In this document: in pieces, positions 3,739 through 7,465 of the stretch
Position numbering within the stretch: the first letter of the stretch is position 1
How the letters are laid out: every line of letters starts with the position of its first letter
Virus record (IMG/VR): IMGVR_UViG_2548877010_000018
Source: a virus
Lineage: Duplodnaviria; Heunggongvirae; Uroviricota; Caudoviricetes
Direction: 5' to 3' (one strand)
DNA: 14,811 nucleotides
The notes under the pieces: generated by a model
Told to the model about the DNA's origin: nothing
Databases searched by the model: none
Seen by the model: the letters and a program-made list of their open reading frames with translations, nothing else
Translations under genes and position numbers: made by a program

Positions 3739-3854
3739 ATGCCCTCCATAGTAACCACGAATAAAAAATACAATATGTACTTCTCAAATACAAGTAAAAA
3801 TACACATTGTGCATGGATGGTTCCAGTACAGAGCGTAATAATAAGGACATGAAA
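3739..3854. promoter_or_regulatory. OR-type divergent operator/promoter region (pR for cro, pRM for cI)
   Basis: 116-bp AT-rich gap between divergent cro and cI. Contains near-palindrome tacaatatgta (3769-3779), perfect 9-bp palindrome cacattgtg (3803-3811) and repeated ATACAA half-site-like motifs. Individual -35/-10 boxes not confidently assigned. Confidence 0.55.
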
Positions 3855-4508
3855 ATGAAATGGTATGAACTGGCTAGATCCAGAATGAAAGAGCTCGGCA
3901 TAACTCAAGAGAAGTTAGCCGAAGAGCTAGGTATGACGCAGGGTGGAATTGGACACTGGTTGCGCGGATCTCGTCATCCATCTCTTAGTGATATTGGTGT
4001 GGTGTTTAAATACCTTGGTATTGATAACATATCATTCAACCACGACGGGACATTTTCACCTGTTGGCGAATACTCATCGGCCCCAGTTAAAAAACAATAT
4101 GAGTACCCTGTTTTTTCTCATGTTCAGGCTGGGATGTTCTCTCCAGAACTCAGAACCTTTACCAAAGGTGATGCGGAGAGATTGGTAAGCACAACCAAAA
4201 AAGCCAGTGACTCTGCATTCTGGCTTGAGGTTGAAGGTAACTCAATGACCGCACCAACAGGTTCCAAACCTAGTTTTCCTGACGGGATGTTAATTCTGGT
4301 TGACCCTGAGCAAGCTGTTGAGCCCGGCGATTTCTGCATAGCCAGACTTGGTGGTGATGAATTTACCTTCAAGAAACTGATCAGGGATAGCGGTCAGGTG
4401 TTTCTACAACCACTAAACCCGCAATATCCAATGATCCCATGCAATGAGAGTTGTTCCGTTGTGGGGAAAGTTATCGCCAGCCAATGGCCTGAAGAGACGT
4501 TTGGGTAA
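3855..4508 (+). CDS. cI: CI-type prophage repressor with LexA-like (S24) autocleavage domain
   Basis: C-terminal half ([21 protein letters not shown]...EVEGNSM...FKKL...[11 protein letters not shown]) matches lambda cI as recalled, including the Ala-Gly cleavage site and Ser/Lys dyad. N-terminal HTH domain is not lambda-like. ORF track starts at 3807 on TTG; ATG 3855 (SD aagga 7 nt upstream) or 3849 is the likely start. Confidence 0.85.
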
Positions 4509-5009: not shown

Positions 5010-5531
5010 ATGGCAAAGTCAAACGTTAGCGTGCAGGCATTCAAGGACTTCCTTGAAGAGCTTATGTCGCTGAACATAATGAAGGAGGCCACCGCTCGAA
5101 ATTTAAAAAACTCATCCGCTCGCCTCTTAACGGTAGTCCAAGAAGAGGAAATGGGTGATGTTACTCAGCTTGATGTGAATGAGCTTGCCGAGCGATACAT
5201 CAACGCAACTGAGCCGAAGCCTAGCGACAGCAGCATTACTGCATATAAAAGCCGCATGGAAAGTGCAATCAAAAAGTTTGTAGCTTTCCAGTCTGGTGAA
5301 GAAATCCCATACACTCCGATTGACAAAGAATCCAGTGAGGAAAAAGATTTGACTGGCGAACCAACAAAAGTCGAAGGCAAGGCTAATGCACTTCATACCT
5401 ATGATCTTCCAGTAGTTCTTCGACCTGAATCAGGGGTTACAGTAACGATTAAAGGCATTCCTAACGATATCACAAACGAAGAAGCCGAACGCATCTCTTC
5501 AATTCTGAAGGTTTACGTTCGGCCTCAATAA
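5010..5531 (+). CDS. Hypothetical protein (173 aa), immunity-region accessory gene in the rexAB-equivalent position
   Basis: Longest ORF in the cI-to-pL gap, with a protein-like E/K-rich composition and no motif I recognise. Own candidate promoter upstream and terminator downstream; appears AT-richer than neighbouring genes. Confidence 0.6.
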   Translation: MAKSNVSVQAFKDFLEELMSLNIMKEATARNLKNSSARLLTVVQEEEMGDVTQLDVNELAERYINATEPKPSDSSITAYKSRMESAIKKFVAFQSGEEIPYTPIDKESSEEKDLTGEPTKVEGKANALHTYDLPVVLRPESGVTVTIKGIPNDITNEEAERISSILKVYVRPQ

Positions 5532-5997: not shown

Positions 5998-6070
5998 TAC
6001 AAAGCGTTGTAAAAAAACGCCCCGTTTTAGAACAAATTGTATTGACCAAGTGAAGTACATATCGTACTAT
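5998..6070 (+). promoter_or_regulatory. Candidate pL promoter with OL-type operator palindromes
   Basis: -35 ttgacc (6042-6047), 17-bp spacer, -10 tactat (6065-6070). Palindromes tacaaagcgttgta (5998-6011), aaaacg-ccc-cgtttt (6014-6028) and acaaattgt (6033-6041) share ACAA/TTGT half-sites with the OR region. Confidence 0.5.
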
Positions 6071-6115: not shown

Positions 6116-6161
6116 GGCTCTTTAAACAACGTCGACTCTCGACTACGTGGCTGAAAAGCCA
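6116..6161 (+). promoter_or_regulatory. nutL-like site (boxA + boxB)
   Basis: boxA-like ggctctttaaacaa (6116-6129; compare rrn boxA tgctctttaacaa) and boxB-like hairpin tggctgaaaagcca (6148-6161), about 100 nt upstream of the N-like gene. Confidence 0.6.
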
Positions 6162-6259: not shown

Positions 6260-6532
6260 ATGTCCAGAAAAACAGAATTTAAAGGCACCGCAGCTTCTCG
6301 CCGTAGAGCTCGTCGCGCAAACCTGCAAAGTCAGGAGGCGATTAGCTCCGACAAACTACACAGGCCAACCCCATCACGAGTGGTCTTACAATGCAAACGC
6401 AAACCAGCAATGAGAGCAGAAGTAATAACACTGACAACGTTGACCAGAAAATATGAAGGCTCAACTTGTCTTCCAAATGTAGCTCTTTACGCGGCAGGCT
6501 ACCGTAAATCCAAACAACTGACAGCAAGATGA
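6260..6532 (+). CDS. N: N-like transcription antitermination protein (arginine-rich motif)
   Basis: ATG 6260 preceded by SD gggagg. N-terminal arginine-rich motif GTAASRRRARRANLQ typical of lambdoid N proteins; sits downstream of pL/nutL candidates. The longer track ORF from 6188 lacks an SD. Confidence 0.65.
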   Translation: MSRKTEFKGTAASRRRARRANLQSQEAISSDKLHRPTPSRVVLQCKRKPAMRAEVITLTTLTRKYEGSTCLPNVALYAAGYRKSKQLTAR

Positions 6533-6590
6533 CTTGTGTTGGTCGCCAGAAAATGAAATTAGGCAGCAAACCACTTATTTGAGGTGATAT

Positions 6591-6842
6591 ATGGAATTTC
6601 ATGAAAGTGCGATTTGTGATTTTCGCGCTAACGCAAATTCAGTAAAACCACAGCCAATTGCAGTTCTTTTTAAAACAATGGGTGCGTGGGCTGTTTTATG
6701 CTTCGCCGCTGACGACACTGACGCAAGAATGGCAATAGGACAAGAGATGGAGATGGACCCGACAAACGATGAATTCATAATTTATGGCGCTCCATCTAAT
6801 TACTTACTTGATACCTGCAACATTTACAACAAGGCTGCCTGA
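6591..6842 (+). CDS. Hypothetical protein (83 aa) in the ral-equivalent position
   Basis: ORF with strong SD (gaggtga) 5 nt upstream of the ATG, located between N and ea10. Sequence does not match lambda Ral as I recall it. Confidence 0.55.
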   Translation: MEFHESAICDFRANANSVKPQPIAVLFKTMGAWAVLCFAADDTDARMAIGQEMEMDPTNDEFIIYGAPSNYLLDTCNIYNKAA

Positions 6843-6978
6843 TGGTGGCCTTTATTTTTGGCATAAACAACAGAATAAACACAGCACTGTGTATTCATTC
6901 CAACGAGTGAATACACGGAGCAATGTCGCTCGTAACTAAACAGGAGCCGACTTGTTCTGATTATTGGAAATCTTCTTT

Positions 6979-7006
6979 GCCCTCCAATGTGAGGGCGATT
7001 TTTTAT
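6979..7006 (+). terminator. Intrinsic terminator (tL-like) just upstream of ea10
   Basis: Perfect 6-bp stem gccctc/gagggc with loop caatgt followed by gattttttatct. A separate perfect 9-bp hairpin gtgtattca/tgaatacac lies at 6890-6917. Confidence 0.6.
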
Positions 7007-7024
7007 CTGTGAGGATATGAACAG

Positions 7025-7393
7025 ATGTCAAACATCAAAAAATACATCATTGATTACGACTGGAAAGCATCAATAGAAATTGAAATCGACCATGACGTAA
7101 TGACAGAGGAAAAACTTCACCAGATTAATAATTTCTGGTCAGACTCTGAATACCGACTCAATAAACACGGCTCTTTATTAAATGCTGTATTAATCATGCT
7201 GGCGCAACATGCTCTGCTTATAGCAATTTCAAGCGACTTAAATGCATATGGTGTTGTGTGTGAGTTCGACTGGAATGATGGAAATGGTCAGGAAGGATGG
7301 CCTCCAATGGATGGTAGCGAAGGAATAAGAATTACCGATATCGATACATCAGGAATATTTGATTCAGATGATATGACTATCAAAGCCGCCTGA
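7025..7393 (+). CDS. ea10: Ea10-like protein (lambda early-left accessory protein)
   Basis: 122-aa translation (MSNIKKYIIDYDWKASIEIEIDHD...TIKAA) matches lambda Ea10 as recalled. SD gaggat upstream. Confidence 0.8.
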   Translation: MSNIKKYIIDYDWKASIEIEIDHDVMTEEKLHQINNFWSDSEYRLNKHGSLLNAVLIMLAQHALLIAISSDLNAYGVVCEFDWNDGNGQEGWPPMDGSEGIRITDIDTSGIFDSDDMTIKAA

Positions 7394-7465
7394 GCGCGGC
7401 GTTACCGCATACCAATAACGCTTCACTCGAGGCGTTTTTCGTTATGTATAAATAAGGAGCACACC

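Follow-up and report, generated by a model that had tools for sequence, protein, structure and literature searches.

A catalogued orphan gene occupies the ral slot behind the antiterminator gene N of Stx and other lambdoid phages and is a tentative candidate for an immediate-early, host-directed inhibitor

The DNA analyzed here, referred to as the window, is a stretch of 14,811 nucleotides (IMG/VR virus record IMGVR_UViG_2548877010_000018) whose + strand runs in the direction of the early-left (pL) operon. Gene order was established by transferring the annotation of phage VT2-Sakai (offset 901) and by reading the open reading frames (ORFs). The cI gene lies at about 3807-4508 and is separated from pL by a 173-aa ORF (H0093/ECs1184; 5010-5531, + strand; PHROG 2602, no domain), which occupies the rexAB position and is linked to the immunity type of the window, not to the gene studied here. 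The pL promoter (TTGACC-17-TACTAT; 6042-6070, +) was located by a promoter scan and coincides with the annotated pL of VT2-Sakai (6943-6971 in that genome, offset 901), while a putative nutL (6116-6156, +) was transferred from the 100% identical VT2-Sakai annotation. The antiterminator gene N follows at 6260-6532 (+; Pfam N_peptide, E = 2e-32); it has an HK97/P22-like C-terminus (...LPNVALYAAGYRKSKQLTAR, then stop), is annotated as N in VT2-Sakai and corresponds to ECs1181 of Sakai. Behind N lie the 83-codon gene that is the subject of this work (ORF83; 6591-6842, +), ea10 (DUF2528; 7025-7393, +; Pfam E = 7e-47; 98% DNA identity to lambda) and then cIII, kil, gam, bet and an interrupted exo. 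The region around ORF83 is 100% identical to VT2-Sakai (prophage Sp5), the Stx1-converting phage of Morioka, phage 2851 and the PA series.

Further features were recorded elsewhere in the window. The only Rfam match, the cIII thermoregulator Lambda_thermo (64.6 bits; 7453-7500, +), lies outside ORF83 at the start of cIII and is expected for a lambda-like cIII. The lambda-like exo is split by an IS629 element (IS3 family) of about 1310 bp at 9157-10466, with minus-strand ORFs at 9199-10089 and 10086-10412 and a 3-bp target duplication (AGA). Among phage records, vB_EcoS_phi330 comes closest to positions 8900-10700 and covers 100% of the query at 99.7% identity in three joined alignment pieces. 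Positions 1-657 are part of a second IS629, 100% identical to the matching end of the exo copy and in inverted orientation; some 50 bp separate its end from the 3' terminus of the replication gene P (710-2086, minus).

ORF83 starts with the ATG at 6591, runs for 83 codons and stops with the TGA at 6840-6842. Its Shine-Dalgarno (SD) sequence, GAGGTGAT (6581-6588, +), is an 8-nt complement to the 3' end of 16S rRNA (the anti-SD), ends 2 nt before the ATG and overlaps the stop codon of a fossil N end. An earlier reading of the window from its letters alone (the sequence-only reading) had placed a different small protein with a strong SD in the slot of lambda ral, which agrees with these coordinates and the 8-nt SD match. 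It had also called the gene unrecognized, and here it was mistaken. ORF83 has been annotated since VT2-Sakai (H0090, VT2-Sap20/NP_050519), is ECs1180 on the Sakai chromosome, was screened as orf60 by Silas et al. and belongs to PHROG 2471, a family with the function annotation 'unknown' whose HMM it matches over its full length (residues 1-83 on profile positions 1-83 of 83, E = 1.4e-61). Stx1 and Stx2 prophages of E. coli O157:H7 Sakai-type strains carry it, as do many other lambdoid phages. Records of the identical protein cover at least 1000 contigs, and 399 of 5,426 complete E. coli genomes contain the gene in full.

Homologues with 70-83% identity were found in prophages of Citrobacter, Klebsiella, Enterobacter and Salmonella, always at the same position after N, and the strong SD, the length and the position are kept across four genera. 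In an alignment of 12 sequences, 35 positions are invariant, including K19, P20, P22-K28, W33, V35-A39 and I64-P68. Pairwise dN/dS among the homologues ranges from 0.04 to 0.22 (Nei-Gojobori), with dS saturated in the most distant pairs, and by this measure ORF83 is under purifying selection. An ORF that arose by chance, or filler in decay behind N and ahead of the terminators, would fit the lack of a known domain and the low-confidence structure prediction; strong purifying selection with saturated synonymous divergence, the conservation of SD, length and position over four genera and the full-length PHROG match effectively refute this explanation, to which we give next to no credence. By these comparative data ORF83 is a real gene and a catalogued orphan. 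An antisense ORF (6599-6778, minus) and an overlapping ORF (6784-6939, plus) have no support comparable to that of ORF83. The latter, of 51 aa, and an antisense ORF of 86 aa (6342-6602, minus) overlap ORF83 and N and give full-length matches to PHROG 31828 and PHROG 37739, respectively. Both are best read as over-annotation and probably not as genes, these two families most likely having been made by over-annotating near-identical Stx phages.

The 83-aa product has a pI of 4.2, a net charge of -7 and a GRAVY of -0.03 and is therefore acidic, soluble and not hydrophobic, with the reservation that acidity is not conserved in the family, the most divergent homologue having a net charge of -3. Pfam returned 0 families at E ≤ 1 for ORF83 and 12 homologues, NCBIfam and PADLOC gave no match for ORF83, and neither a DNA-binding nor a protease-inhibitor motif was found in it. 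When 1.84 billion cluster representatives were searched exhaustively with an HMM, only two real clusters plus fragments were recovered, and a second search started from the most divergent member added nothing. The word-index searches and this HMM search found relatives only in Enterobacteriaceae, at about 60% identity or more. Two long repeat proteins (P0035 and P0036) were rejected as homologues since their 44 and 12 weak stretches are summation artefacts. As the searches yielded no other relatives, the family is an orphan confined to lambdoid phages of Enterobacteriaceae. In the PDB, neither the sequence on its own nor a profile matched anything above chance level. The AlphaFold2 models of ORF83 have low confidence (pLDDT 56-57), which we attribute to the small diversity of the family, and two runs agree on the order alpha-beta-beta-alpha-beta-alpha. 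Fold searches with these models matched no known fold or anti-defense protein, and such searches are uninformative because of the low confidence of the models. Of the two checks proposed by the sequence-only reading under this head, the homology search thus delivered an orphan family restricted to Enterobacteriaceae and the structure search no match.

The left boundary of the gene can be read from the 58-nt spacer behind N. Translation and alignment to intact N genes (those of HK633 and of the S88 and O121 prophages, and the phage-21-type N of C43(DE3)) identify positions 6530-6582 (+) as the fossil 3' end of a lambda/21-type N, which reads TCVGRQKMKLGSKPLI up to its stop codon and is not in frame with the functional N, whose stop lies at 6532. 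In the phages with an intact N of this type (HK633, C43(DE3), S88 and O121), the next gene starts 8 nt past the N stop with the same ATG and SD; the HK633 annotation, for instance, places N at 2166-2492 and ORF83 from 2501. By this alignment, a different N allele (..LPNVALYAAGYRKSKQLTAR, then stop) was spliced in at TGACTTGTG in the Stx phage and in mEp234, and the old 3' end was left as a fossil. The identical 58-nt gap separates N from the following gene in 933W, and about 970 further E. coli genomes match only the ~60-nt fossil flank, without ORF83. The left joint of the ORF83 cassette, as judged from these junctions, is the shared start codon after the fossil N end. One prophage contig (GCA_033188555.1, 3723-4595) carries ORF83 between an upstream gene with Pfam N_peptide and a downstream gene with Phage_N_antitermin.

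On the right side, blastn against lambda detects no homology across ORF83; homology resumes at 6826 (lambda 34103) and continues to 9156 at 98%, through ea10, cIII, kil, gam and bet. Because it restarts at 6826, the right recombination joint (6826-6842, +) is placed inside the last 17 nt of ral, which are common to both genes in blastn and in the junction alignment with lambda and phage 21. This position of the joint accounts for the common last residues of ORF83 (..YNKAA) and Ral (..NNKAA), and for the spacer between ORF83 and ea10 being as long as in lambda, 182 nt. The resumed homology and the equal spacer indicate a local substitution next to a lambda-like ea10, as the sequence-only reading had supposed, and the alignment of breakpoints against lambda that it had recommended sets the left joint at the shared ATG and the right joint in the last 17 nt of ral. 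Compared with lambda and phage 21, ORF83 by alignment stands in for exactly orf28+ral.

The right joint coincides with a terminator-like hairpin, AAGGCTGCC-TGAT-GGTGGCCTT plus TATTTTTGG (6831-6860, +), that was found by a terminator scan and by folding. The stem-loop spans 6831-6852 and precedes the T-run TATTTTTGG, the ORF83 stop codon sits in the loop, and the last 17 nt of the gene make up the 5' arm. A rho-independent terminator is annotated at this hairpin in mEp234. The hairpin at the stop codon is present in all divergent ORF83 homologues and in the orf184 cassette with differing stem sequences. Since it is kept despite these differences, the ending KAA, with which the Ral, ORF83 and orf184 proteins all close, is dictated by the terminator stem. 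A second terminator-like hairpin (6977-7006, +; scan and fold) is likewise an annotated terminator in mEp234, and the lambda-homologous 182-nt spacer as a whole (6843-7024, +) is unusually structured (z = -5.7). Between the two hairpins lies a perfect 12-bp hairpin at about 6889-6916. In HK633, ORF83 (2501-2890) has lost its stop codon, which lengthens the protein to 129 aa, across the region of the terminator; ORF83 copies of 86 and 91 aa in IMG/VR have a similar change at the right joint.

The shared start codon serves several unrelated genes. An exact scan of IMG/VR with the 33-nt linker ending in the ATG gave at least 120 loci, among which the first ORF after the linker belongs to at least seven unrelated classes: orf28 followed by ral (at least 55 loci), ORF83 (at least 21), a 140-149-aa protein with two transmembrane segments similar to orf47 of Silas et al. 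(at least 16), a 156-aa protein starting MTKSWSVPF (at least 15), a class that also fills the slot of 933W, a 62/63-aa protein (at least 6), a 107-aa protein starting MEALVVER (at least 5) and an 87-aa protein (at least 2). ORF83, orf28+ral of lambda/21 and at least five more unrelated cassettes that use the same ATG are, by position and linker, alleles of one slot. The 28-aa orf28 in front of ral, conserved at the start codon common to these cassettes, is extremely acidic (MEEEFEEFEEHPQDVMEQYQDYPYDYDY, net charge -12); besides the IMG/VR loci (at least 55) it is seen in the phage-21-type immunity region of C43(DE3) (2062-2148), where RefSeq leaves it unannotated.

Among the same loci (at least 120), tblastn found ORF83 at 20 and ral at 49 with 0 co-occurrences, against about 8 expected if they were independent. 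Because both flanks are shared, this exclusivity points to allelism and not to equivalent function. At the 29 ORF83 loci that were compared, the repressors are unrelated, as are the N families and the recombination modules, and each of the genes ECs1184, ea10, kil, gam and bet is missing from many loci. No conserved adjacent partner gene of the kind expected for a toxin-antitoxin or addiction module was found at these 29 loci, and a two-gene module of ECs1184 and ORF83 was rejected since ORF83 occurs without ECs1184 in most backgrounds. From this survey, ORF83 is a self-contained single-gene cassette in a hypervariable slot after N in lambdoid phages, and its conserved flanks and many alternative genes are those of a gene of the N-proximal 'Ral' accessory region. 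The cassette is a clean example of early accessory gene swapping, with a shared start behind a fossil N and a terminator stem that encodes KAA.

The promoter scan found no promoter besides pL upstream of ORF83, and the 58-nt spacer between N and ORF83 (6533-6590) contains no terminator-like site (fold z = -0.75). Co-transcription of N and ORF83 is suggested by this lack of a terminator-like structure between them and by the conserved terminator at the ORF83 stop. In its sequence, ORF83 has the characters of an immediate-early pL unit, with no terminator after N and one directly after ORF83. N and ORF83 would accordingly be transcribed together from pL before antitermination, as an N-independent immediate-early transcript, unless Rho-dependent termination intervenes after N. 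This would place ORF83 among the earliest phage proteins to appear once the DNA has entered the cell; in a lysogen, any leakage of pL would yield mainly N and ORF83. In lambda, by contrast, ral is described as expressed only once N has acted.

Such a position also suits a factor for phage development or host takeover that is unrelated to immunity. Comparable to CIII and Kil, it might for example modulate the choice between lysis and lysogeny, the stability or activity of N, or a host protease or transcription factor. Whichever N family is present, ORF83 always follows N directly, at a spacing of 8-64 nt, its SD overlaps the N stop in the ancestral arrangement, it shares one operon with cIII and kil, and a role of this kind fits the lack of a counter-defense phenotype in the published screen. 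However, many unrelated alleles are found in the slot, and 933W and other close relatives do without ORF83, which makes a core regulatory role unlikely, and the protein has none of the DNA-binding or protease-inhibitor motifs looked for. We regard a development factor as somewhat improbable, though the strongest of the alternatives to the reading we prefer.

Neither ORF83 nor its hotspot is new, the gene being catalogued and the accessory region described. When Silas et al. (bioRxiv 10.1101/2023.04.06.535777; Nat Commun 2025, PMC12373910) ranked the accessory regions of phages of enterobacteria, several of those at the top received the label 'Ral'. The exact ORF83 sequence is their UDP0060 (AFM76313.1, mEp234), included as orf60 among 200 synthesized accessory genes and picked from their 'Ral' region; Ral is orf87 in the same numbering, and orf184, the 107-aa cassette of mEp235, triggers the gop-beta-cII abortive system (PMC12373910). 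That the slot hosts anti-restriction-type genes, as the sequence-only reading had assumed, is hence documented: it is a hypervariable accessory region that contains ral. Hosts in the screens were ECOR strains and MG1655, challenged with T2-T7, P1vir and lambda-vir (Silas et al.). Neither text of Silas et al. mentions orf60 or reports a phenotype for it; it is named in their gene list. In a pooled EcoKI test with MG1655 and unmodified lambda-vir, ardA, ral and ocr were recorded as hits in 3/3 replicates (Silas et al.), and orf60 is not named among the recorded EcoKI hits, as judged from recorded hit notes and not from per-gene scores. This is suggestive of no detectable EcoKI alleviation by ORF83 in that assay, a conclusion read from the recorded hits and not from a dedicated test. 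The anti-restriction or anti-defense role put forward in the sequence-only reading thus meets partial and indirect negative evidence as regards restriction, while a broader anti-defense function is possible. In a 2025 survey of EHEC phages (PMC12502783), phi330 alone of 8 phages lacked an anti-RM function according to DefenseFinder and two others carry Ral; phi330 carries ORF83. A literature search by sequence string and accession numbers returned nothing on ORF83 beyond the papers cited here.

Our preferred reading, held tentatively and with rather less than even confidence, is that ORF83 is an immediate-early host-directed inhibitor, probably acting in counter-defense and not as a Ral-type EcoKI alleviator. 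A small acidic cytoplasmic protein made at the onset of infection could bind and neutralize a host protein, and a component of an anti-phage defense or stress-response system would be its most plausible target. The host-directed reading follows from the company that ORF83 keeps, since the alleles of the slot include Ral and orf184, which is sensed by an abortive system, and from its autonomy of phage genes. We lean towards counter-defense on account of the slot, which is the top-ranked 'Ral' accessory region of Silas et al. The acidity of ORF83, its exclusivity with ral among the loci listed and its presence in phi330, which has no recognizable anti-RM gene, incline us in the same direction. 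Against counter-defense stand the absence of a reported orf60 phenotype in the screens of Silas et al. and of orf60 from the named EcoKI hits, the lack of a homology or fold match to known anti-defense proteins (with low-confidence models) and an acidity that is not conserved. The exclusivity with ral, moreover, partly follows from the shared flanks.

A second published observation bears on the lysogen. Mondal et al. (2016, PMC5155283) constructed markerless in-frame deletions of Sp5 genes of unknown function in a K-12 lysogen and could not obtain them for exactly two ORFs, ORF21 (ECs1180, which is ORF83) and ORF23 (ECs1184); they suggested that the deletions are lethal and that both ORFs are needed for stable lysogeny. 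ECs1184, the 5010-5531 ORF of the window, is thus the only other Sp5 gene that resisted deletion in that study (PMC5155283). Taken at face value, the failure to delete ECs1180 suggests that ORF83 is required for lysogen viability or stable lysogeny, in the manner of an addiction or antidote function with low expression from the prophage. Yet ORF83 lies in the CI-repressed pL operon with no other upstream promoter found, it has no conserved phage-encoded partner, and related phages such as 933W lysogenize with a different cassette in the slot. A technical or cis cause is also conceivable: both non-deletable ORFs flank pL-nutL-N, so the exchange constructs may have carried an unrepressed pL-N segment, and the deletion as designed takes 3 bp of the terminator stem with it. 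We therefore rate a requirement for lysogeny as unlikely. Marginally less probable again is a reading that joins it to the preferred one, in which ORF83 founds a new family of immediate-early inhibitors directed against a host immune or stress system other than EcoKI, the non-deletability in Sp5 is real and the counter-defense is addiction-like; leaky prophage expression would then trigger the host system unless ORF83 were present.

The gene poses two published puzzles, the lack of a phenotype in counter-defense screens and the failure to delete it from the Sp5 lysogen. Its slot is the one with the strongest enrichment for anti-restriction functions, and its production alongside N within the first minute of infection is predicted. 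An explanation of both puzzles could uncover a new target of temperate phages in the host or, alternatively, an artefact of the 2016 constructs.

Several named systems invite comparison. The acidic DNA mimics Ocr and ArdA resemble ORF83 in being small, acidic and among the first genes expressed (as predicted for ORF83), but they share neither sequence nor fold with it, its net charge (-7) falls far short of theirs, and both scored in the EcoKI screen where ORF83 did not. An assignment of ORF83 to the acidic DNA mimics was rejected, its charge being low and not conserved and a fold match being absent. The alternative first cassettes behind the identical N-3'/SD linker, namely the 156-aa class (MTKSWSVPF; the L0079 type of 933W, a phage of the same genus as that of the window) and the 140-149-aa two-transmembrane class, are unrelated to ORF83 in sequence, size and charge, and one of them is membrane-embedded. 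A comparison of ORF83 with the 87-aa cassette by hhalign was negative. The closest counterpart in organization is orf184 (107 aa, mEp235), likewise an acidic single-gene cassette that begins at the shared start codon and ends in ..KAA with a hairpin; the two sequences are unrelated (hhalign probability 1%), and orf184 has a reported phenotype whereas ORF83 has none.

Lambda Ral (PF11058) leads to the last alternative, that ORF83 is a functional analogue of Ral or a very diverged Ral, and thus a Type I restriction alleviator. The same slot and flanks as ral without co-occurrence among the loci listed, the acidity and predicted early expression of ORF83 and its presence in phi330 without a recognized anti-RM gene would accord with this. 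Nevertheless, ORF83 has no detectable similarity to lambda Ral and no match to the Ral family among the Pfam HMMs (0 families), no BLASTP alignment is obtained at E ≤ 100 and the hhalign probability is 0.2%, so that by these tests ORF83 is not a diverged Ral, the outcome that would have refuted the sequence-only reading. The charges are opposite, Ral being basic (pI 8.8) and ORF83 acidic, the Cys-rich CxxxxxCxxC of Ral is absent from ORF83, and ral, with ardA and ocr, was a recorded EcoKI hit where orf60 is not named. A Ral-like alleviator is accordingly very improbable. What ORF83 and Ral have in common is their setting: the lambda slot holds orf28+ral where the window holds a single 83-aa ORF, the ral cassette (phage 21, HK633-type) begins like ORF83 at the first ATG after the N stop and SD, and both cassettes share the slot, the joints, the terminator hairpin, the ..NKAA end, the 182-nt spacer and ea10.
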